A stretch of DNA of 64,000 bases from a bacterium. Its GTDB lineage: Bacteria; Patescibacteriota; Minisyncoccia; Phycocordibacterales; JBBTRF01. The DNA lies in the NCBI GenBank assembly GCA_037130265.1, contig JBAXTI010000001.1, positions 235,086 through 299,085 of the forward strand. The letters run 5' to 3'. The notes under the pieces are model-generated. The model ran no database searches. It had not been told where the DNA came from and worked only from the letters and a program-made list of their open reading frames with translations. Shown piece by piece: positions 3,030 through 53,911 of the stretch. Each line of letters begins with the position of its first letter. Positions within the stretch are counted from its first letter, which is position 1. Both the position numbers and the translations under genes were made by a program.

Positions 3030-6000
3030 ATGTCATCTAAAGATTCAGACAAGAAGCCAAAGGGCGGCAGCGAGGGCAAAAGCGACAAGGGTGGAAAAGG
3101 CGGCGCATCAGAGGCGTCGGCTTTGCCTGCGCGAGAGAATGTGGTGAGTCGCAGTATCACGACTGAAATGCGCGACTCGTATTTGGACTACGCGATGTCC
3201 GTGATCACTGCGCGTGCTTTGCCAGATGTGCGCGATGGTTTGAAGCCGGTACACCGACGTATTTTGTACGCGATGCATGAAATGGGTCTCACCGCGAGCA
3301 CGAAGACACGAAAGTCGGCCGCGGTGGTGGGAGACGTACTCGGAAAGTATCACCCGCACGGCAACGTGGCGGTATATGAGTCGATGGTGAAGATGGCCCA
3401 GGATTTTTCGATTCGGTATCCGCTGATTATTGGGCAAGGTAACTTTGGTTGTTTTACAAAAGACACAAAAGTCCGATTGGCTGACGGCCGCAATCTCTCT
3501 TTTGGCGAGCTCATCGATGAGGATAAGAATGGTAAGAAAAATTACGCCTTCACTGTCTCAAAAGAAGGAAAGATTGAAATCGCTCAACTCACAAAACCGC
3601 GGCTCACTATCAAAGGCGCCGAAATTATGAAAGTGATTCTTGATAATGGCGAGGAAATTCGATGCACGCTGAATCATAAGTTCCTTTTGAAAAACCAGGA
3701 ATACAAAGAGGCGCAATATTTGAAACCGGGCGAATCATTGATGCCTCTTTACACTCGTCTTTCTACGAAAGGCGAAAGTGCACTCTCGGACATGGTGGGA
3801 TATGAAATGATCTACCAACCGCTTGAAAATACTTGGGAGTATGCACATTATTTGGCCGACGCTTTCAACATCTCGACTGGAAAGTATGCAAAATCAGCTG
3901 GCAAGGTGCGACATCATGTCGATTTCAATAAACTCAATAATAGCCCAGAAAACATCCAGCGAATGCAGTGGCTTGAGCATTGGCGCCTCCACTCTGAACT
4001 AACCGCGAGTCGTCATAAAAATGATCCTGAGTATGTAAAAAAGCTTGCTGAAGGCAGAAAGATTTTCCGTGCCAAGAGCGGCATAAAAGAGCAGTACAGC
4101 CAGAGGATGTCAAAGAGAAATAAGCAGAATTGGCAGAATCCTGAATATCGTGCACAGATGATCGAGACGCTCCGTCGAGTGAATCTTGAGTATATTGCTA
4201 CTCATCCTGAAAAGCGCCTAGAACTTTCAGCTCGCGCAACCAAGACGTTGAAGCGATTGTGGCAAGATGAGACGTATCGCCAAGAGATGCACGAACGAAT
4301 CGTCCGAGGGAATAAAAACCACACCACCAATAAGACCGGCAAGAAAAAGTTTGATACGGTCTGCAAGAAATTGATCGAAGTCGGAGTACCGATTTCTAAA
4401 GAGACCTACGATGAATTTCGTCCGAAGGTGTATCCATACAAAGCGGCTACTTCGTGGGAGGTCGGTTTCAGTAAATATTACAATGGCAATATTGAACAGT
4501 TGACCGTAGAGCTTGCAGGAAATCACAAAGTGTCCAGTGTCGAATTTTCTGGCGAACACGAGGATGTATACGATCTCACTTTGCCAATAAGTCACAACTT
4601 TGCGCTGGCGGCGGGCGTATTTGTGCACAACTCCATCGACGGTGACGGTGCGGCAGCAGAACGATACACCGAAGCGAAGATGGCGCGTGTGTCCTCGACC
4701 CTGCTTCAGGATATTGAGAAAGACACTGTTGACTTTCGTCCAAACTACGAAAATACTCGCAAGGAGCCGAGTGTGTTGCCGGCCGCTGTTCCGAACCTAC
4801 TGCTGAACGGCACCCTCGGTATCGCCGTCGGTATGGCGACCAACATCCCGCCGCACAACCTTGGCGAAGTGGTGGACGCAACAACTCATCTCATCGAAAA
4901 CCCCGACGCTTCGACCGAAGATCTTTTGCAATTTGTGAAGGGTCCCGATTTCCCGACCGGTGCGATGCTCTACGCTTCAGCAGAAATGAAACATGCATAT
5001 ACCACCGGTCGTGGTGGTGTGGTAGTACGTGGCGAGGCGGAAATTGTCGAGACAAAGACTGGTTCATTCCAGATTGTCATCACTTCGATCCCATATCGTG
5101 TAAATAAGGCCGACCTCATCCTCACCATTGCCGACCTTGTGCGAGAGAAGAAAATTGAAGGTATTAGAACGATGCGTGATGAATCGACCAAGGACATCCG
5201 TGTCGTAATCGACCTCAAACAAGGCGCTTTCCCTCAGGCTGTATTGAACTTTTTGTATAAACACACCCAGCTTGAAGACACCTTCCACTTCAACACTGTT
5301 GCCCTCGTGGACGGCGTGCCGCAGACACTTTCGCTGAAGAGTGTACTGGAGGAATTTGTGAAGCACCGACAGATCGTCGTGCGACGCCGAACAGAATTTG
5401 ACCTTCGCAAGGCCGAAGACCGCGAGCATATCTTGCTCGGCTTGAAAAAGGCGCTCGACCATATCGATGAGATCATTAAATTGATCAAAAAGTCGAAGGA
5501 CACTCCGGAGGCGCATCTCAATTTGATGAAGACCTTCAAATTCTCCGACCGCCAGGCGACTGCTATTTTGGAAATGAAGCTGTCACGACTTGCGGGTCTC
5601 GAGCGACAGAAGATTGAGGACGAGCTCAATGCTGTCCAGGCGCTCATCCGCGAGCTCAAGGATTTGCTCTCGAGTGCAAAGAAGATTTTGGCCGTGATTA
5701 AGAAAGAATTGCTCGAAGTTCGCGCGAAATACGGCGACGAACGACGCACTAAAGTCATCCGTGGCGGCGTGAAAGAATTCAAGCCGGAAGATACCATTCC
5801 TGATGTGGATTCTGTGCTCGTGCTCACCGCAGGTGGCTACATCAAGCGCACCTTGCCAGACGAATATCGCCGACAGAAGCGTGGCGGTGTGGGTGTTGTC
5901 GATCTCGATACCAAGGAAGAGGATTTCATCACCCATATTTTGAATGCGAACACGCATGCGGATATGTTGTTCTTCACGAACAAGGGCAAGGCGTACCAGA

Positions 6001-8322: not shown

Positions 8323-9957
8323 ATGAAACACCTCTCCAAAACTCTCCTTGACATCGCCCGAGCCGCCACGTTACTTCTTGTGATCGGACTTGGCGCCAGC
8401 GTAGTGTCGGCGCAGTTTTCGACACCGCTGGTGCTGACGTCTTCATGGGTAGAAGCTCCCTCTAATGCTCCTGCAAATAATGCATCCGCGCCAATCAACG
8501 TCAGTGTGAATGCTCAGCGAAAGTCAGGTTCTCTTTTGCTCGGTACATCTGCAGTTTTGAACTACCCTCAAACGATCATGCTTGACGTCCTCGGCCTCGC
8601 CAGCACTACCGTCCTTTCCACCGACTACCTCCTTGTTGCCAAAGACTTCACCTATGCCAAAGGCAGTAACCTTGCCGGCAAGGTGTTGACATCGGATGCG
8701 TATGGGGTGGCGAGTTGGGCGGCGCCGGTGGCATCATCTTGTACCGCAGGGACTTCAGGTACGGATGCTTTCAGTAATCCAGGTACCTACACCTGGACAG
8801 TTCCATCAGGCGTCACTTCTATAAAGGTGAAGGTATGGGGTGCGGGTGGAAATGGTGGTAGTGGTGCGCCTTCATATGCAGCGGCGGGTGCAAATGGCGG
8901 TGGTGGTGGTGGAGGGGGTGGTGGTGGAGGATACGCTGAAAAAACCATCACGATTCCCGCTGGGACGACTAGCTATCAGGTGACGGTAGGTGCTCATGGT
9001 GTTACCGGATTTTCAGCCTTCGACACTTCTGCTGTGAAAGCGACAAACGGCAGTAATGGTGTGAATCATACTGACAACGGCTCTACGGGTAGCGCTGGTG
9101 GTGCTGGTGGTGCTCCAATCGGTACATACACAGCATCTCAAAATGGTACTGCTGGTTCTGTTGGACAATCTGGCGGATACACAAATTGTGGTGGCGGCTT
9201 TAGCTACGACGGTAGCGGTGGTAATGGTGGTGCCTCAGTTTCACCTTCTACTGCAGGTGCCGGAGGTATTATTGGTTCATGTAGTCAGTCTGGCGTTGCT
9301 GGCGGTGCTGGAACTGTCGGTGGCGGAGGTGGGGGTGGTTCTGGATACTCTGGTGCGGTGCTGAACGGTGGTGCTGGAGGGGACGGACGAGTAACTATTG
9401 AATACAGTACGGGTGGATCTTGTGCAGCAACACAGACCACTACTTCAACCACCGGTGCCACTATTGTTTGCGGTGGCTGGGATGTGAAATACAACTCCGG
9501 CTACGTTGCCGGATCAAATTGGGGATGTGCTGTGCCTGACACTACATCAGTGGCATGTCCTGCTGGTTATGACGATATTAAATCAAGCAAGGTGACGATC
9601 AGCTTGGCGGAGCAAACACATTTGTGCGTACTGCACGCATCTGGTGGTACGACCTCGACTGGAGCCATAAGCGTCCCTTCAGGTACTCATTGCGGTTATT
9701 TTTCAGGAGTGCTAGATACCAACAAACAATATACATTTGGCAGTCGTCAAACTACAGGACTCTGTCAATCAAAGGCGCTCGTATACTCAGATGCATATAG
9801 CGGATTTTCAACAATGGGCGCTGGTGCCACGCAAGCATCTCGAAATAGTTACTTCTGTCCGGCTGGCTTTTCTTTCCTTTATTACACATACGCACCAGAT
9901 TCTAACGGTGACACGTATCGAGGTGACAGTTTTACTGGCACTTGCATGAAAGACTAG
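8323..9957 (+). CDS. secreted glycine-rich surface protein with a poly-Gly tract and a Cys-rich C-terminal domain
   Basis: Signal peptide (MKHLSKTLLDIARAATLLLVIGLGASVVSAQF). A G12 run is encoded by a (GGT/GGN)n repeat at about 8881-8940. Many GGxGG repeats are present. The C-terminal roughly 180 aa contain more than 12 Cys. Confidence 0.6.
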   Translation: MKHLSKTLLDIARAATLLLVIGLGASVVSAQFSTPLVLTSSWVEAPSNAPANNASAPINVSVNAQRKSGSLLLGTSAVLNYPQTIMLDVLGLASTTVLSTDYLLVAKDFTYAKGSNLAGKVLTSDAYGVASWAAPVASSCTAGTSGTDAFSNPGTYTWTVPSGVTSIKVKVWGAGGNGGSGAPSYAAAGANGGGGGGGGGGGGYAEKTITIPAGTTSYQVTVGAHGVTGFSAFDTSAVKATNGSNGVNHTDNGSTGSAGGAGGAPIGTYTASQNGTAGSVGQSGGYTNCGGGFSYDGSGGNGGASVSPSTAGAGGIIGSCSQSGVAGGAGTVGGGGGGGSGYSGAVLNGGAGGDGRVTIEYSTGGSCAATQTTTSTTGATIVCGGWDVKYNSGYVAGSNWGCAVPDTTSVACPAGYDDIKSSKVTISLAEQTHLCVLHASGGTTSTGAISVPSGTHCGYFSGVLDTNKQYTFGSRQTTGLCQSKALVYSDAYSGFSTMGAGATQASRNSYFCPAGFSFLYYTYAPDSNGDTYRGDSFTGTCMKD

Positions 9958-46143: not shown

Positions 46144-46854
46144 ATGCACAATGCGGCATCGTATCCTCTGTTCAAGACGAGGGCCGTGCAGCTTCGTCTG
46201 GAAGGAAAAACATATAGTGAAATCCTAGAGGCTGTGCCTGTGGCAAGGTCGACACTTTCGCTTTGGCTAAGAGGCACTTCTTTGGCGGAACCGCAGAAGC
46301 AAAGATATACCGAAAAGAAGCGCCTAGCCGCTTTGAGAGGCGGACAAAAAAGAAAGCAGGACCGGATCGATATCACCAAGACTATTTTTGAAAAGTGCCG
46401 CAGCGATATTTCCATGATCACGACGAGAGAGCTATGGCTCATCGGGATTTCGCTGTATTGGGCAGAAGGGTCGAAGCAAAAAGAGTACAATCCCGGCTCA
46501 GGTACATATTTTTCTAATACTGATTTGAGAATGTTGCAAGTATTTGTCGCTTGGTTGGAGCGATGCGTTGGTATCCAATCTGAGGATATTTCTTACGACC
46601 TTTTCTTACACGAGACTGCGCGGAAAAAGTTGCTCGAAGTCGAAACGTATTGGAGAAGCGGACTGAATATTACGCGAGATCAGCAGTTCAGTGTGTATTG
46701 GAAACGGACTCAGATACGGACGAGCAGGCGCAACATTGGCGACTTGTATTATGGGTGTCTTCGGGTTAAAGTAAGGGCGAGTTCGTCGTTGAATCGAGCA
46801 CTTGCCGGCTGGGCTGATGCGATTACTGGTGCTGTCTGTTGTCACGAGATATAG
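46144..46854 (+). CDS. HTH plus LAGLIDADG-like (single degenerate motif) endonuclease-like protein
   Basis: The N-terminal HTH is TYSEILEAVPVARSTLSLWLRG. WLIGISLYWAEGSK resembles a LAGLIDADG helix, with Glu at the acidic position. It is paralogous to the 30358-31019 pseudogene. The stop at 46854 is 14 nt before tRNA-Gln. Confidence 0.55.
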   Translation: MHNAASYPLFKTRAVQLRLEGKTYSEILEAVPVARSTLSLWLRGTSLAEPQKQRYTEKKRLAALRGGQKRKQDRIDITKTIFEKCRSDISMITTRELWLIGISLYWAEGSKQKEYNPGSGTYFSNTDLRMLQVFVAWLERCVGIQSEDISYDLFLHETARKKLLEVETYWRSGLNITRDQQFSVYWKRTQIRTSRRNIGDLYYGCLRVKVRASSSLNRALAGWADAITGAVCCHEI

Positions 46855-46868
46855 TGTTTCCAATTTTT

Positions 46869-46939
46869 TGGGGGATCGTCTAATGGTAGGACATCAGGTT
46901 TTGGTCCTGAGTATCGGGGTTCGAGTCCCTGTCCCCCAG
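46869..46939 (+). tRNA. tRNA-Gln (anticodon TTG)
   Basis: TGGGGGATCGTCTAATGGTAGGACATCAGGTTTTGGTCCTGAGTATCGGGGTTCGAGTCCCTGTCCCCCAG. U1-A72 and G73 match the bacterial Gln identity set. Anticodon loop TTTTGGT. Confidence 0.85.
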
Positions 46940-47024
46940 CAGTCTAGTTTAGTTCTGAACGACCAAGAGGGGTCAGAACAAACAGATATCTATACCGTCA
47001 TCGCATACCTGCTGAGAGCAGTAT

Positions 47025-47052
47025 TCAAGACAAAAAATCACCGATACAAGTC
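47025..47052 (+). terminator. rho-independent terminator downstream of tRNA-Gln
   Basis: aatcaccgatacaagtcggtgatt followed by ttttg. Confidence 0.65.
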
Positions 47053-47093
47053 GGTGATTTTTTGTTAAGATAAGATGGATTAATTGATTATGT

Positions 47094-47675
47094 ATGTCAG
47101 AAAATACCTGGAAAGAATACTTCGAAAGAACAAAAGATAGTAAACCTAGACCTCTACTTGTTAAGGCAGTGGATTTGGTGGTGGACAAAAATGAAGCACT
47201 TGATTTGGGCTCGGGTGCTTTTAATGATGTTAGATACTTGGTTTCGAAAGGTTTTAAACATATTACAGCTGTAGACAGTAAACCGATAGCTCAAGGTATC
47301 ATTCAGAATTTTCCGACAGAAATTGTCTCATATATTATCAGTTCTTTTGAGAATTTTGATTTTGTTGAAAACAAATATGATCTTATAAATGCTCAATACT
47401 CTCTACCATTTAACCCAGAGAATACTCTTGAAAGAGTTTTCAAATCAATCACTTCTTCTCTTAAAGATGGAGGGATACTCACAGGTCAATTTTTTGGAAC
47501 TAAAGATGAATGGAATGTTGAAGGCCATAAAATGAATTTTCAAACTCGCGAACAAGCAGAAAAATTACTAAGTGGTTTAGAAGTTATTGATTTTCAAGAA
47601 GAGGAGGAAGATAGAAAAACAGCAAAGGGAGATATGAAGCATTGGCACGTTTTCCATTTTATAATAAAAAAATAA
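47094..47675 (+). CDS. class I SAM-dependent methyltransferase (island cargo)
   Basis: Motif I ALDLGSGAFNDVRYLVSKGFKHITAVD. Small MTase fold, possibly TehB-like. Confidence 0.55.
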   Translation: MSENTWKEYFERTKDSKPRPLLVKAVDLVVDKNEALDLGSGAFNDVRYLVSKGFKHITAVDSKPIAQGIIQNFPTEIVSYIISSFENFDFVENKYDLINAQYSLPFNPENTLERVFKSITSSLKDGGILTGQFFGTKDEWNVEGHKMNFQTREQAEKLLSGLEVIDFQEEEEDRKTAKGDMKHWHVFHFIIKK

Positions 47676-47676
47676 T

Positions 47677-48171
47677 ATGGAAATAAAAACTCAAATAACA
47701 AATAGTAGAGGAAAAGTTTTCGATACTATATATAAAGATGGAGATCCTGAAACAGATTTAGAAAATAGTGTTATACACGGTGTTCATTCATTTTGCTTTT
47801 ATAAAGATAAGATGGTTATAGTTTCAAATTCAAGAAAAGAGTGGACTCCTCCTGGTGGCGGTATTGAACCTGGAGAGAATTATAAAGAAGCATCTATCCG
47901 TGAAATAAAAGAGGAAGCAAACATGAAAGTTCTTCACCAAGAGTGCATTGGTTACCAAGACGTTTGGATATCGGATGAAAACAGGATGGTAAGGCAGGTA
48001 CGAATGTTTTGTATAGTTGAACCATATGGAGATTTTGAGAAAGATCCTGATGGAGATATTTTAGAAATAAAACTGATTGATCCAAAAGATTATAAAGAAT
48101 ATATAAAATGGGGAGAAATCGGAGATCATTTGATGGGAAGAGCTTTAGAGCTTAGTCAAAAAATAAAATGA
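47677..48171 (+). CDS. NUDIX hydrolase (island cargo)
   Basis: Nudix box GGGIEPGENYKEASIREIKEEANM (Gx5Ex7REUxEExGU). Confidence 0.75.
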   Translation: MEIKTQITNSRGKVFDTIYKDGDPETDLENSVIHGVHSFCFYKDKMVIVSNSRKEWTPPGGGIEPGENYKEASIREIKEEANMKVLHQECIGYQDVWISDENRMVRQVRMFCIVEPYGDFEKDPDGDILEIKLIDPKDYKEYIKWGEIGDHLMGRALELSQKIK

Positions 48172-48812
48172 AACTTATTTTTCAATATAATAAAGAAAAA
48201 GATATTTGGTGCATCCTTAACAAAGGAAAAAGTTCTAATAATTCTCCAATTCCTACTAAAGTATATGAAGAACTTGTGGCAACATGCGGAGAAAATCCTT
48301 CGGCGGATTCCACATCTTCTTTTGTAAATAAATACTTTTTAGATAAAAACATAAAAGTAAATGAATATATAGAAAAATATCAGAGGGACTGGTATAGCAT
48401 TACAGAGAAATATCAAAAAAGAGCAGAGTCAGTGTTTGGAGTTTCATTACCGAGCGACATTGTTGTGTATCTTACGATTAATAATAGATGTCCATACAAC
48501 ATAGAAGATAATTACTTTTTTGTGACAATTCCTGCTTCTTCAGTTAGAAGAACAATAATGCACGAATTGTGGCATTTCTATATGTGGTACGGGCTAGGAG
48601 CAGATCAAGAAGAAAAATTAGGAAAGCAAAAGTATAATGATTTAAAAGAGGCTTTGACTGTATTGCTCAACGTGGAATGTAAAGATTTACTGCCAGAAGG
48701 GGTATATGATGGCGGTTATCCACAACATAAGGAAGTGAGAGAAGAAATTTTAGAATATTGGTCAAAAAATAAAAATATCAAGGATCTTTGGAAATATTTA
48801 CAGACAAAATAA
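48168..48812 (+). CDS. hypothetical protein with an HExxH motif (island cargo)
   Basis: IMHELWHFYMW contains HExxH. There is no other recognisable similarity. Confidence 0.35.
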   Translation: MKLIFQYNKEKDIWCILNKGKSSNNSPIPTKVYEELVATCGENPSADSTSSFVNKYFLDKNIKVNEYIEKYQRDWYSITEKYQKRAESVFGVSLPSDIVVYLTINNRCPYNIEDNYFFVTIPASSVRRTIMHELWHFYMWYGLGADQEEKLGKQKYNDLKEALTVLLNVECKDLLPEGVYDGGYPQHKEVREEILEYWSKNKNIKDLWKYLQTK

Positions 48813-48813
48813 T

Positions 48814-49581
48814 ATGGACATCGATAAACACAAAAAACAATTCGGTAATCAAGCAGAAAACTATACTAAGTATAGAAAACCATATACTGAAAAGTTATAT
48901 GAGCTTCTTTTCTCCTTAGCTCCTGGAAAAAAGATTCTAGATATAGCTTGTGGTACAGGTAAATCTACAGAACCGATGGTCAGAAGCGGAACGGAAGTTA
49001 TAGGATGTGATCACGATCCACTGATGATTGCAGAAGCTATTAAGCAGGCTGAGATTAAAAGCTCACCTATTAAATACATTGTTGCAGATGTTGAACATTT
49101 ACCATTTGAAGATTCAAACTTTGATGTAGTAACTGTAGGCACGGCATTTCATTGGTTTGTAAATGAAAAGTCTGTTACAGAAATAAAACGAGTACTTAAG
49201 GAAAAGGGTTTATTTTTTATTTTTTGGACTCTTACCACTAAAGATGTACCTGAAGAAGATTCCATCCCAGGAAGTTTCTATAAAACATTCAATTGGGATA
49301 AAGTTCCACCTGAATTAAGAAATTTAGATTATATTTCAAATTTCTTCAAAGAGCAGGGATTCCAGAATGTTAACACCGCAAGAATTCCATTTAGTCACAA
49401 TGATACCGTCGAAGAACAAGTAGGACTAATGAAAACAGCTTCAAGTTACGAGATTCTATCAGATAGTGAAAAAGAACGATTTATCAGAGAGTTAACTGAA
49501 CTTCTTACAACTAAATTAGGTAATAGACCCTACTTCACTTACGAAGAGGAAATACAGGTGTGTTATGGGTTCAAGAAATAA
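48814..49581 (+). CDS. class I SAM-dependent methyltransferase (island cargo)
   Basis: Motif I ILDIACGTGKSTEPM, then post-I GCDHD, then VTVGTAFHWF. Confidence 0.65.
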   Translation: MDIDKHKKQFGNQAENYTKYRKPYTEKLYELLFSLAPGKKILDIACGTGKSTEPMVRSGTEVIGCDHDPLMIAEAIKQAEIKSSPIKYIVADVEHLPFEDSNFDVVTVGTAFHWFVNEKSVTEIKRVLKEKGLFFIFWTLTTKDVPEEDSIPGSFYKTFNWDKVPPELRNLDYISNFFKEQGFQNVNTARIPFSHNDTVEEQVGLMKTASSYEILSDSEKERFIRELTELLTTKLGNRPYFTYEEEIQVCYGFKK

Positions 49582-49598
49582 TCATATAAAGTAATTAT

Positions 49599-50585
49599 AT
49601 GGAGTCAGTTTTACAAAAAATAACGGAAGAATATAACCTCAATTTTAAAGTTCTTGATAAGGTTACTCAAGGTTTTTTAAGTGATAATTATATTCTTGCT
49701 GATGGTCAAAAGAAGTATTTTCTTAAGAAATATAGGTTTAAAAATAAAGAACGAATGAGTGAGGTACATTCTGCGAAAAGATATTTCTTCGAAGGTGGTA
49801 TTCCAGTAATTATGCCCTTGCTCACAGATTCAGATGAAAGCTTTTTTGAACATAATGGGAGTTTTTATGCCCTCTTTCCTTTCATATTAGACCATCAACT
49901 TAAACCAGATGAAATCACTAAAGACGCGATTGTTTCTCTTGGAGAAACTCTTGCTCGACTACATCTTCGAGGAAAAGAAAGTAAACTTAAAATAAATGAA
50001 TTTTTCAGACCATGGGATAAAGAAGAGCGAATGAGAGGAATCAATCAAATTCTCGAAAAGATCTCACTCATAGAAAACAAAACCGATTTTGATATTCAAG
50101 CCGAAAAGAACATCTTGCTCAAGAAATCAGTTATTGAATCAAATAATCGAACATATGAATCTTTTAACTTTCTTAATGATCACCTCATTCACGGCGATTA
50201 CATGATAGGAAATGTATTTTTTGATGACCAGAACAATGTATCCAATGTGTTTGATTTTGAAAAAACAGAATATGCACCTAGATTTTTTGAGCTGTTTCGT
50301 TCAATGATATATACAACTTTCTTTGATGAAAATATTACGGAAGAGACTTTGGCTAATACAAAACTCTATCTCGATTCATATTTGAATATATATCCTATGT
50401 CAAAAGAGGAATTGGATGATGCTTTTACAGCATATTATATCAACAGATCTCACTCTTACTGGGTGGAAGCTGAGCATTATCTTAGAGGGAATACGAGAGC
50501 TGATGAACTTCTTGAAAGTGATATTGCACGCATGAATTATTTTTCAGAGAATTTTGAAGTATTAAAGAAGTATCTTATAGAATAG
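49599..50585 (+). CDS. aminoglycoside-phosphotransferase/choline-kinase-fold (APH-like) kinase (island cargo)
   Basis: Brenner motif HGDYMIGNVFFDD and a downstream DFE (VFDFEKTEYAP) are present. Length and layout fit small-molecule kinases of the APH/ChoK/HSK-II family. Confidence 0.6.
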   Translation: MESVLQKITEEYNLNFKVLDKVTQGFLSDNYILADGQKKYFLKKYRFKNKERMSEVHSAKRYFFEGGIPVIMPLLTDSDESFFEHNGSFYALFPFILDHQLKPDEITKDAIVSLGETLARLHLRGKESKLKINEFFRPWDKEERMRGINQILEKISLIENKTDFDIQAEKNILLKKSVIESNNRTYESFNFLNDHLIHGDYMIGNVFFDDQNNVSNVFDFEKTEYAPRFFELFRSMIYTTFFDENITEETLANTKLYLDSYLNIYPMSKEELDDAFTAYYINRSHSYWVEAEHYLRGNTRADELLESDIARMNYFSENFEVLKKYLIE

Positions 50586-51918
50586 TAATAAGTTTCTCTT
50601 TCAGAATAATCTTACTCTTTAAACATCCCAGTAAATCTCTTTTTTCAAATATTGATCCTTCGGTTAGTAAATACCTAGCGTAGTTTCTAATGTCAGCATC
50701 TTTCGCTTGATAGTTTTCTTCAGTCTTACCCATTATTCCAGAATGAAATTTCTTATGTCTCTCTATTTCGATTTCCAACTTCTTTTTAAGACCAGATTTG
50801 TCTAGATCAATCCTATCTATCATTTCTAGTAATTGTGATATTAAAACTTTTTCTTCAATGTAGCCTTCTTTGCAATGAATATTTTTAGATCGAGTACAAC
50901 CATAGTATATATACTTTGCTATCGTTCCATCTTTTAGATTCTTATACTTTTCCTGTGCAGTTACTCCTGATCCACATACTCCACAAGTAAGCATCCGAGT
51001 AAATGCAAACTCTTTATTTTTTTCAGTCGATTTTATTTGTAAATGTAATTGTTTTTGTGCCGCATCAAACAAATCTTTTGATATGAGTGGAGTATGTTTA
51101 CCTTGAAACCATCTACCACTTAATTTTGGGTATTCAAAAGTGCCATGATAAAAGTGATTATCTAAAATAGTGTAGACATTACTTAGGGTTAGAGGCTTTC
51201 CATTTCTGGATAGGAATTTAATCTCTCGTAACCATTTATATACTTTTCTGCCACTCCAACTCTCATATCCGACTTTCGTAAACATTTCTTTGATAATTGA
51301 GCTTCTGTCTGGATCTACTAATACTACGCCCGGCTTGTCTCTGTCTTTAGAATTTAAGTAGCCAGTAGGAGCGACACTCGGCCAAAGTCCCATTTCACAT
51401 TTTGTTTTGAGTCCTCGTTTTACATTAATGCTTTTATTGTCGTTCTCAAGTTTGGCTTGTGATCCGAGAATCATGAGTAGAAATTTCTCATTTGGATTGT
51501 TTGTAAATCTTTGGCTATGAGTCCGTATCTCAATTAACTTTTTCTGATCTAGTAAGTCTACTAATGATCCAAGATCTCCAGCATTTCTGCTTAAACGATC
51601 TGGATGCCACACAAGTATTCCATCAAACTTTCCATTCCTAATATCTGTAAGAAGTTTGTTGTATACCGGTCTTTGCCCGCAATCTTTTGCTGAATGGGAT
51701 TCTCTATAAATCTCTAGAATATTGAGGTTATCCCTTTGGGCAATGTTGAGCATCTCTTTAACCTGAGAATCTACTGACAAAGCCTGCCTTTCCTCGGCTT
51801 CGCTTGATTTACGGGCATACTCATTAACAGATGAGTCTCTACCAAATGAAAAAAGATTCAGCAAAAACTGTCCTGTGCTACGGAGACTCAAACACGTGGG
51901 GTTCAAAATAATCTTCAT
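50575..51918 (-). CDS. large serine recombinase (resolvase/invertase catalytic domain, recombinase domain and Zn-ribbon)
   Basis: N-terminal ARKSSEAEERQALSVDSQ (catalytic Ser region), GILVWHPDRLSRN, then a recombinase domain and CGVCGS...YYGCTRSK...HC zinc ribbon. Confidence 0.75.
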   Translation of the reverse strand: MKIILNPTCLSLRSTGQFLLNLFSFGRDSSVNEYARKSSEAEERQALSVDSQVKEMLNIAQRDNLNILEIYRESHSAKDCGQRPVYNKLLTDIRNGKFDGILVWHPDRLSRNAGDLGSLVDLLDQKKLIEIRTHSQRFTNNPNEKFLLMILGSQAKLENDNKSINVKRGLKTKCEMGLWPSVAPTGYLNSKDRDKPGVVLVDPDRSSIIKEMFTKVGYESWSGRKVYKWLREIKFLSRNGKPLTLSNVYTILDNHFYHGTFEYPKLSGRWFQGKHTPLISKDLFDAAQKQLHLQIKSTEKNKEFAFTRMLTCGVCGSGVTAQEKYKNLKDGTIAKYIYYGCTRSKNIHCKEGYIEEKVLISQLLEMIDRIDLDKSGLKKKLEIEIERHKKFHSGIMGKTEENYQAKDADIRNYARYLLTEGSIFEKRDLLGCLKSKIILKEKLITIL

Positions 51919-51972
51919 GAAGGATTCGATAGTGCCTTGCCCAGTGAACCATCGTTCACCTATAATAGGTGA

Positions 51973-53293: not shown

Positions 53294-53911
53294 ATGCTAA
53301 AGATATATGTTGCCCGACATGGACAGAATGTAGATAACCTAAAGGGTATATTGAATGGACACAGGGATGAGCCTCTGACTGAAAAAGGCGTTGAGCAAGC
53401 GCATGAAGTTGCGGATAAGATAAAAGAATTCGCTATTATTTTTAATGCTATCTATAGCTCACCGCTGATCAGAGCTCTTGAGACCGCAAAAATAATATCC
53501 GGGACGTTGGGAATGTCGTCGCCGCAAAAAGAGAATCTGCTCATTGAAAGAAATTTCGGCATTATGACCGGAAGAATGATTTCTGAAATCGAGACTATGT
53601 GTGAGCCACATATTATTAAGACAGATACAATCACTTATTTTCTCAACCCAGAAGGAGCAGAGACGTTCCCAGACATGATGAATAGGGCTGAGGTGCTTTT
53701 GAATAAAATTAAAAGTGTACATCAAAGTGGAAGCATCTTGCTGGTTTGTCATGGCGATATCGGAAAGATGATTTACGCAACATACTATGGTTTAGATTGG
53801 AAAACAGTCCTCACCCAGTTTCATTTTGGTAATTGTGACCTACTTCTTCTCTCAGAGGACTCTCCGGCAGAAGAGGCACATGTTTTTAAGTTTGAACAAC
53901 ATAATCATTAG
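53294..53911 (+). CDS. histidine phosphatase superfamily protein (phosphoglycerate-mutase-like)
   Basis: The RHG catalytic motif is present in IYVARHGQNVDN, and the second His is in LLVCHGDIGK. GC content is lower than the neighbouring genes. Confidence 0.7.
   Translation: MLKIYVARHGQNVDNLKGILNGHRDEPLTEKGVEQAHEVADKIKEFAIIFNAIYSSPLIRALETAKIISGTLGMSSPQKENLLIERNFGIMTGRMISEIETMCEPHIIKTDTITYFLNPEGAETFPDMMNRAEVLLNKIKSVHQSGSILLVCHGDIGKMIYATYYGLDWKTVLTQFHFGNCDLLLLSEDSPAEEAHVFKFEQHNH

Follow-up and report, generated by a model that had tools for sequence, protein, structure and literature searches.

An AT-rich island behind a tRNA-Gln gene as a probably immobile remnant of a widespread Patescibacterial family of large serine recombinase islands

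The Ccr large serine recombinases of the staphylococcal cassette chromosome islands (SCC and SCCmec) integrate at the 3' end of rlmH/orfX, and SprA (YokA) of SPbeta serves a 134-kb prophage that is inserted in spsM and requires the directionality factor SprB. Integration into tRNA genes (tDNA) is usually due to tyrosine integrases, which leave a displaced tRNA fragment, as stated in the Islander paper (PMC4383910), and small serine recombinases have been found genetically linked to anti-phage defence systems (RADS; PMC13552941). Here we describe a block of low guanine-cytosine (GC) content in a 64,000-nucleotide stretch of a Patescibacterial contig (JBAXTI010000001.1, positions 235,086 to 299,085; hereafter the window), which lies between a tRNA-Gln gene and dinB and carries five cargo genes and, on the opposite strand, a large serine recombinase (LSR) gene. 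The segment 46941–51819, extending at most to 51934, is a horizontally acquired island remnant. Taking all of the evidence together, we consider it quite probable that this is an acquired, and by now probably immobile, remnant of a small island belonging to a widespread Patescibacterial family built around SprA-like LSRs; a literature search found no description of such an LSR/tRNA island arrangement in Patescibacteria.

The composition of the block sets it apart from its surroundings, with a GC of 0.333 for 46941–51819 versus a mean of 0.521 (standard deviation 0.014, minimum 0.475) in 198 windows of equal size elsewhere in the 64 kb. A sliding profile falls from 0.46–0.60 to 0.29–0.35 between ~47,000 and ~51,900, no 1-kb bin outside the island in the 64-kb window lies below 0.44, and GC at third codon positions (GC3) is shifted too, being 0.21–0.28 in the six island genes and 0.44–0.68 in the flanking Dus, DnaX, DinB, DUF817, and orf423. 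A preliminary description made from the letters alone had noted this sharp break behind tRNA-Gln, and the numbers bear it out; it had placed the boundaries at 47070 and 51965, however, and while the island is real both of these ends had to be revised. The tRNA-Gln(TTG) gene occupies 46869–46940 on the plus strand (ARAGORN; 59 bits for the Rfam tRNA model), and because the left-end sequence conserved in the family starts directly after it, the island start is placed at 46941; the position 47,07x is the mere onset of the GC drop of the coding cargo. At the other end the homology of the recombinase gene stops at 51819 and is followed by 115 bp that match nothing (51820–51934, GC 0.39). The host flank then begins with the DinB promoter (51935–51972, plus strand), a TTGCCC-18-TATAAT site with a GAAC-N4-GTTC box that is the best promoter-like site of the region; as this promoter (from ~51935) is conserved in the relative L004, with a shared stretch CTTGC..GTGAACCATCGTTCACCTATAATAG upstream of DinB, it caps the right end of the island.

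The block is not ancestral, because syntenic relatives exist without the LSR and without all five cargo genes. These came from a DinB-based retrieval among GTDB contigs, one genome per species, and are Patescibacteria/Paceibacteria metagenome-assembled genomes, some labelled Yonathbacteria or Zambryskibacteria. The order Dus-DnaX-tRNA-Gln(TTG)-...-DinB is kept in three of them (L004, L017, and L018), none of which has an LSR or any cargo homolog at the syntenic site. The interval between tRNA and DinB is 265 bp in L017, holds a membrane-protein open reading frame (ORF) in L018, and is filled in L004 (DinB 86% identical) by 2.4 kb of unrelated genes (HTH_3, InPase-like, and others, partly of low GC), so that, judging by these relatives, the tRNA-Gln/dinB spacer is a variable site. 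The earlier suggestion that the window holds an acquired block beside tRNA-Gln with a large serine recombinase is upheld by this absence and by the tie of the family to tRNA 3' ends.

The LSR ORF (50575–51918, minus strand) combines the Pfam domains Resolvase (PF00239, 9.4e-25, residues 34–177), Recombinase (PF07508, 5.3e-14), and Zn_ribbon_recom (PF13408, 6.6e-7). The catalytic motifs YARKSS and DRLSR are present and align with the catalytic domains of SprA and TP901-1; the closest solved structure is that of SPbeta SprA (9dxh, E-value 2.3e-15, residues 35–419 aligned), and the best PHROG match is to the integrases of PHROG 95 (7.7e-64). The best NCBIfam model is CcrB (1e-35), at 123.5 bits versus a cutoff of 900, followed by CcrA (58 versus 700) and CcrC (50 versus 900). 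Homologs are numerous: 8000 of 8000 scored candidates had E-values of 1e-20 or less, at least 120 clusters showed 76–87% identity, and the taxa, where named, were mostly Paceibacterota, Minisyncoccia, and Patescibacteria, with one labelled Cytophagaceae. For comparison we fetched 5 genomic loci and 80 metagenomic loci, the latter with 57–83% identity to the window LSR (loci are denoted by L numbers), and we delimit the family as the LSR clade with at least 58% identity over residues 34–447, in which the window LSR falls.

Across this family the recombinase and a tRNA gene keep a common arrangement, which the window shares: in ~37 of 52 loci with enough flank a tRNA lies downstream of the LSR on the opposite strand. 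It is mostly tRNA-Gln (CTG or TTG), with some Ser, Tyr, Lys, and Asn. The distance from LSR stop to tRNA ranges from 88 nucleotides (nt) to 6.6 kb, and 54 of the 59 ORFs lying between the two are co-oriented with the tRNA. The site of integration is best seen in three loci with a common flank. In L121 and L123 the gene order is PrfB-FtsE-FtsX-PyrG-tRNA-Gln-HExxH..., and the flank of L122 is 100% identical to theirs, starting exactly after the last bases of tRNA-Gln; the junction reads '...GACCCGCAGC|AAACAAG' in L121/L123 and '...GGAGACACAGC|AAACAAG' in L122, where the flank is preceded by an LSR and a restriction-modification/reverse-transcriptase module. The core shared at the L122 junction is at most CAGC (~4 nt), and such a core, together with the lack of a displaced tRNA fragment, would fit a serine-recombinase crossover. 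A search of the far end for a displaced piece of the tRNA 3' end found none in the window (allowing up to 3 mismatches) and none upstream of the LSR in 38 loci. In L122 the island continues on the 5' side of the LSR.

In the mechanism that we propose, islands of this family would insert directly after the last nucleotides of a tRNA, mostly tRNA-Gln, leaving the tRNA whole. Reading away from it there come a ~125-nt element with a terminator, 0–6.6 kb of cargo in the direction of the tRNA, and a convergent LSR that a conserved upstream block would drive, and some islands extend past the LSR with further cargo. The donor of the window copy would have been of low GC and its recipient a Paceibacteria-type host of 52% GC, with tRNA-Gln and dinB on either side of the integration, which the LSR presumably performed. 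A motif AGTCTAG, which stands after the tRNA and, reverse-complemented, upstream of intact LSRs, was considered as the crossover core and set aside: the arms lack convincing dyad symmetry, conservation runs ~45 nt further, and the motif reads better as a -35 (TAGACT-N16-TATGTT) and occurs in the window at the left end only.

Several of the loci show traces of rearrangement around the tRNA. In L122, inverted repeats of 218 nt (1265–1482 and 5632–5849, 98% complementary) surround a module of helix-turn-helix (HTH), DNA-methylase, R.HinP1I-like, and reverse-transcriptase genes, and the outer end of one of the repeats is the island/host junction at the end of tRNA-Gln, a layout that points to an inversion event or to insertion in the reverse orientation. 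Fragments of tRNA-Gln near the intact gene were seen in L018 (~8921–8950, a 5' piece), L032 (10697–10727, minus strand, a 31-nt 3' duplicate), and L121 (6941–6961, a 19-nt 3' duplicate), and suggest that integration or rearrangement has taken place at this tRNA more than once, perhaps through elements of another kind.

The left end of the island matches the family. The island begins with an imperfect palindrome (46941–46985, plus strand; AGTCTAGTTTAGTTCTGAACGACCAAGAGGGGTC..., arms GTTTAGTTCTGA...TCAGAACAAAC), which agrees at 34 of 34 nt with the sequence just behind tRNA-Gln in L033 and is very similar in L035, L040, L043, and L048; it is a candidate recombinase-binding arm. It runs on into ..CTATACCGTCATCGCATACCTGCTGAGAGCAGTATTCAAGAC and a conserved non-coding motif (46986–47064, plus strand; ..CTATnCCGTCATnGCATACC-nGC-TGAGn-GCn-GTATTCAGAAC) that closes with an intrinsic terminator hairpin ending at 47064. 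A profile of the whole ~125-nt element (nhmmer) matches the window at 46941–47067 with an E-value of 9.8e-33, matches 20+ loci, and in the cargo-less L043, L048, L078, and L127 the element fills the entire gap between tRNA and LSR stop. The element folds with a z of -6.5, and covariation in alignment A3 picks out only a 4-bp stem (compensatory changes in 4 of 17 sequences, none broken at that pair) and the terminator. An assignment to a known RNA family was rejected, Rfam giving the tRNA and sub-threshold, terminator-driven matches only, as was an outer stem of the motif, which is broken by single changes.

Between these conserved ends the cargo differs from locus to locus. Elsewhere in the family it is, according to domain matches, mostly anti-phage defence, including Hachiman HamA/HamB (2 loci), Shedu SduA (2 loci), D12 and N6/N4 methylases, AbiTii, a KAP NTPase, patatin, a ThsB-like TIR, AAA_13, HNH, and restriction-modification. 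Non-defence cargo occurs in L101 (three glycosyltransferases, HAD, NUDIX, and a TehB-like methyltransferase), and L081 has a 48% homolog of the window kinase, convergent on the LSR. The locus with the closest LSR among the matches listed, L144 (87% identity), has different cargo, and its nucleotide homology with the window ends at the LSR stop. In the window the stops of the kinase and the LSR overlap by 11 nt (50575–50585), and L144 shows an overlap of exactly 11 nt as well (1780–1790), between the LSR stop and a convergent cargo gene other than the kinase. L032, L033, and L035 have cargo that abuts the LSR stop or overlaps it by 0–4 nt. The breakpoint of the cargo is fixed at the end of the LSR gene.

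The same observations bear on the alternative that survives best, which we nevertheless think improbable: that LSR, tRNA 3' end, and non-coding element form a resident cassette-capture or exchange platform peculiar to Patescibacteria, of which the window copy would have been transferred once and then damaged. The conserved flanks would stay in place while the cargo between them is exchanged, whether through capture by the LSR or through homologous recombination within LSR and element; the palindrome after the tRNA (centre ..GAGGGGTC..) would be a second, internal recombination site for cargo capture or swapping, and the GCATACC-hairpin motif would act as a regulatory RNA or bind a protein. The modules would be mostly anti-phage but also metabolic sets like that of the window, and as a corollary the NUDIX, kinase, methyltransferase, and zincin genes of the window could form an unrecognised defence or counter-defence module. 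Such a platform would account for LSRs of ~80% identity with completely different cargo and a homology break exactly at the LSR stop codon, and for the cargo-less copies, in which only 88–306 nt separate LSR and tRNA. The position of the element, moreover, varies: it can adjoin the tRNA or the LSR, lie in the middle of the cargo (L109), or flank a single cargo gene at either end (L061). Several loci start their cargo exactly after GAGGGGTC, the palindrome centre, and the same PyrG-tRNA-Gln neighbourhood holds cargo types of the window without any LSR. However, the LSR, cargo, and element of the window share a foreign composition and the relatives are without LSR, which implies that here the unit moved whole; the sequence beyond the half-palindrome is unconserved in cargo-bearing loci, with no second recombination site evident, and a search of the intervals between the window's five cargo genes revealed no repeated attC-like site.

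Two further observations concern the mobility of genes around these recombinases. An HsdM-like type I restriction-modification gene with an N-terminal MerR/excisionase-like HTH stands divergent from the LSR, on the minus strand, in five loci (L048 702–1052, L046 6435–6782, L085 9400–9747, L037 6932–7279, and L114 508–855); these genes are 84–95% identical among loci whose LSRs are ~60–80% identical to that of the window, and so seem to move independently of the recombinase. On contig Ga0247842_10000006, two family LSR genes (L075 and L082) lie ~15 kb apart, and L075 abuts tRNA-Tyr with a gap of 185 nt.

Returning to the window as an acquired and decayed island, the evidence for decay lies at the front of the recombinase gene. 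Only the part from Y34 to the stop (50575–51819) is homologous to the family: at least 120 listed relatives (76–87% identity) align from residue 34 on, with query coverage of 88–93%, and in 15 of 15 best-matching relatives the DNA alignment of the LSR gene runs exactly to window position 51819, the codon of Y34. Before the catalytic residues the relatives read M...(K/R)YCLYARKSSEAEE, i.e., (K/R)YCLYARKSS, and the window ...FGRDSSVNEYARKSSEAEE, i.e., SVNEYARKSS, so that no complete catalytic domain with a hydrophobic beta-1 strand is found in the window LSR, protein and DNA homology both beginning at Y34. The 115 bp beyond (51820–51934), which give the ORF a non-homologous N-terminal extension of 33 codons starting at an ATG at 51918, had no BLAST match in 140 loci, and Smith-Waterman comparison of 51820–51945 with the right ends of the family gave scores no better than shuffles (z ~0). 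In nearly all of the ~85 loci inspected, an upstream block (CT[AG]GACT ... TATGTT or TTGCGTCAT) precedes the LSR start; it may be a promoter, read as TAGACT-N16-TATGTT, and it is absent in the window. The right end of the window island has no CTAGACT/AGTCTAG motif, no tRNA fragment, and no recognisable right junction, and no lost N-terminal LSR fragment was found elsewhere in the 64-kb window. Short att core repeats at 47,06x and 51,96x, which the preliminary description had proposed as a check, did not materialise either, direct and inverted comparison of the two ends giving chance-level matches only.

Since the N-terminus, the upstream block, and all right-end homology are missing and 51820–51934 is matchless, we take the 33-codon extension to be a fortuitous read-through into unrelated DNA, with polar residues apparently replacing the beta-1 strand. 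We infer a deletion that took away the start of the LSR together with the upstream block, the right junction, and whatever cargo may have lain further out; in terms of the proposed mechanism, the loss would comprise the first ~15–30 codons of the LSR, including the beta-1 strand KYCL. As the front of the recombinase gene, the upstream block, and the right junction are lost, the island is probably a fixed, immobile remnant, and the description of the block as having its own recombinase does not hold in the sense of an intact enzyme.

The opposite case, that of an intact and still mobile element in which the 447-aa LSR is functional and an unrecognised attR lies within 51820–51934, strikes us as unlikely. 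It draws on the intact ORF with Y-A-R-K-S-S and DRLSR, on the in-frame ATG at 51918, and on the fact that LSR att sites can be hard to spot by sequence, and a string 'GGAGAC' at ~51883 resembles the island end of L122; the last was examined as an island-end remnant of the L122 type and rejected, with Smith-Waterman scores equal to those of shuffles. Against it, the first ~33 residues are left unaligned by all 120 listed relatives, and before YARKSS sampled relatives have (K/R)YCL and the window the polar VNE; the region upstream of 51918 showed no promoter-like site on the minus strand, the upstream block is absent, and the similarity of 51820–51945 to family right ends is, as noted, at chance level.

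We regard it as very improbable that the block is a prophage remnant with the LSR as phage integrase and the cargo as phage morons. The best PHROG match of the LSR is indeed a phage integrase family (7.7e-64), and LSR relatives of 45–58% identity occur on IMG/VR contigs; but there is no structural, replication, or lysis gene, the PHROG matches being limited to integrase, generic methyltransferase, and NUDIX, the minimal family members consist of LSR + ~300 nt, and the closest relatives lie on cellular contigs of 100–500 kb. That nothing was acquired, and that the block is instead AT-rich DNA of ancestral origin or a chimera of assembly or binning, is hardly credible: only metagenome assemblies exist and the two identical contigs are perhaps from the same data, but each of three records (ENA 368 kb, Logan 25.7 kb, and NCBI 464 kb) runs across both junctions without a break, the block is missing in syntenic relatives, and the tRNA junction fits the family architecture to the nucleotide.

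Some points weigh against our interpretation of the window as an acquired and immobilised family member. The relatives compared are different species, and as no close strain (>95% average nucleotide identity) turned up in which the site is empty, the deletion event and the precise right boundary are deduced indirectly. The L122 junction is visible on one side only, the contig ending inside the LSR, and AGTCTAG, the first candidate core for the attP/attB arms of the family, may instead be a promoter -35. The window tRNA-Gln is nearer to those of other LSR loci (L049, 68 of 72 positions; L078, 64 of 72) than to that of L004 (55 of 72), the closest relative by DinB, and the arrival of the island may have exchanged the tRNA-Gln, wholly or partly, or introduced it. 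The LSR ORF is uninterrupted over 447 codons and keeps its catalytic motifs, and the protein might still be active despite its altered N-terminus. Finally, contigs from ENA (368 kb) and Logan (25.7 kb) match the window sequence exactly, and these two assemblies with the island, being sequence-identical, are possibly not independent; an apparent strain difference between L001 and L002 was discarded, as the sequences are identical and the gene calls alone differ.

All six genes named in the preliminary description, including the opposite-strand recombinase, were found in the ORF and Pfam analysis. The five cargo genes lie on the plus strand, beginning with a small class-I S-adenosylmethionine (SAM) methyltransferase (47094–47675; Pfam Methyltransf_25, 1.4e-7; GC3 0.23), which is TehB-like by a weak match (NCBIfam TehB 8e-7, far below cutoff). 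It is followed by a NUDIX hydrolase (47677–48171; Pfam NUDIX, 1.6e-11), which has a homolog of 47% identity in the cargo of the LSR locus L101, and by an HExxH protein that we describe as zincin-like (48168–48812; HELWH at residues 132–136). The fourth is a UbiE/BioC-like class-I SAM methyltransferase (48814–49581; Pfam Methyltransf_11, 5.2e-23), for which every NCBIfam match is far below cutoff, and the fifth an APH-fold kinase (49599–50585; Pfam APH, PF01636, 2e-19). A 16-mer, AAAATAATATGGA(A/C)AT (stop, one base, start), is common to the junctions 47669–47684 and 48806–48821, either by chance in AT-rich DNA or as the trace of a cassette joint.

The HExxH protein belongs to no Pfam, NCBIfam, PADLOC, or PHROG family; it has 525 homolog clusters of 60–70% identity, with source names that are all Patescibacterial or 'hypothetical'. 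An invariant E161 is a possible third ligand, and an AlphaFold2 model (mean confidence, pLDDT, 96) has as its best folds the M1/LTA4H catalytic domain, M61, ArdC, and IrrE, all weak with E > 0.1. The HExxH gene is the first gene after tRNA-Gln in L121/L123. The kinase has 278 homolog clusters, mostly of 45–63% identity and ~327 aa, Patescibacterial wherever a taxon is given; the closest of these homologs lie in unrelated chromosomal contexts, one of them directly after PyrG. Its motifs HGDYMIGN and DFE (of the HxDxxxxN / DFx type) are invariant in alignment A4. While the single kinase sequence had no match in the PDB at 1e-3, the family profile matched YihE (6.5e-9), the APH(9) spectinomycin phosphotransferase (3.5e-8), homoserine kinase II (1.4e-3), and YtaA. 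Among the homologs of the kinase is a natural fusion of NUDIX and APH-fold kinase (P0223, 477 aa, JGI), which hints that the NUDIX protein and the kinase share a pathway.

Because homologs are widespread in the phylum, each in different contexts, the five cargo genes are a mosaic of common Patescibacterial accessory genes; a conserved five-gene operon was considered and rejected, as the closest kinase and HExxH homologs are in unrelated contexts and the closest LSR has different cargo. The counts of 278 and 525 clusters, which are those of common Patescibacterial chromosomal genes, also speak against the idea that such cargo is unusual in a reduced-genome lineage. Nor did the proposal of an antibiotic-modification module receive specific support, the kinase profile matching YihE as well as the spectinomycin phosphotransferase, and none of the NCBIfam resistance models matching the kinase, which gave sub-threshold kinase and homoserine-kinase matches only. 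PADLOC found in the window cargo only generic methyltransferase (mad2) and NUDIX (PDC-S07) domains, and nothing for the kinase, HExxH protein, or LSR. With low confidence, we consider the most likely role of the cargo to be the salvage or modification of small molecules or nucleotides.

The surroundings of the island have peculiarities of their own. The promoter-like site of DinB (51937–51972, plus strand; L004 9945–9980) encloses GAACCATCGTTC (GAAC-N4-GTTC), which is conserved in L004 and not in L017/L018 and which we take to be the Cheo/LexA-box pattern of Gram-positive bacteria; its -10 lies only 6 nt before the GTG start of dinB, which suggests a leaderless dinB mRNA under SOS control. Just 3' of DinB, a histidine-phosphatase gene (53294–53911, plus strand) has a GC of 0.40 and a GC3 of 0.39, compared to a GC3 of 0.65–0.68 in its neighbours, and may be a separate, second acquisition. 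In the gap between DnaX and tRNA-Gln, a 236-aa ORF (46144–46854, plus strand) of intermediate GC (0.48) has a weak N-terminal HTH and a LAGLIDADG-like 'LYWAEGS' and no family match. This ORF is absent from L004, L017, and L018; homologs of 43–45% identity stand beside tRNA-Gln in the same position in the LSR-bearing L090 and L113, L033 has a LAGLIDADG_3 ORF there, and the 236-aa ORF may travel with, or target, the same tRNA locus.

In itself the window island is unremarkable, a block acquired horizontally that has since decayed, and the interest lies at the level of the family. The value of the window is that of an entry point, a foreign block conspicuous in a 52%-GC host having made visible an LSR family that occurs in hundreds of Patescibacterial genomes and is marked by its tie to tRNA ends (mainly Gln), its conserved element, and its quickly changing, defence-rich cargo. 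If confirmed, the family would provide a major channel for gene flow, and a hot spot of defence genes, in a phylum with poorly known mobile elements; it would also be a rare instance in which a serine recombinase, and not a tyrosine recombinase, targets the end of a tRNA, and would supply compact site-specific integrases whose target can be predicted.

Set beside the described systems, the family shares features with several and coincides with none. Like SCC/SCCmec, these are small LSR-moved islands without transfer genes of their own, with variable cargo, at the 3' end of a functional housekeeping gene; unlike SCC/SCCmec, the Patescibacterial islands target the tRNA 3' end, with a non-coding element and terminator at the junction, the island has a single recombinase gene whose product, below the Ccr cutoffs, is not a Ccr orthologue, and the window copy is truncated. 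With SPbeta SprA the LSR shares the layout of Resolvase, Recombinase, zinc-ribbon, and coiled-coil and a YxR(K/R)S-type active site, whereas the islands are 1.6–10 kb and tRNA-adjacent, with no directionality factor identified. The tRNA islands of tyrosine integrases (Islander/TIGER) resemble them in tRNA integration, in variable cargo, and in the repeated use of tRNA-Gln with fragments in L018, L032, and L121, but here the enzyme is a serine recombinase, the shared core is at most ~4 nt (CAGC), and the far end is without tRNA fragment. The link between serine recombinase and defence recalls RADS, with Hachiman, Shedu, ThsB-TIR, AbiTii, KAP NTPase, and restriction-modification among the family cargo; unlike in RADS, the recombinase is large and has a fixed tRNA partner, and the cargo of the window matches only generic PADLOC domains. 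Integrons, finally, offer a resemblance only, in that a recombinase gene stands beside co-oriented, variable, mostly single-gene cargo units; the Patescibacterial islands have no tyrosine IntI and no attC repeats, their recombinase stands at the end opposite the fixed site, and they are mobile as complete units.

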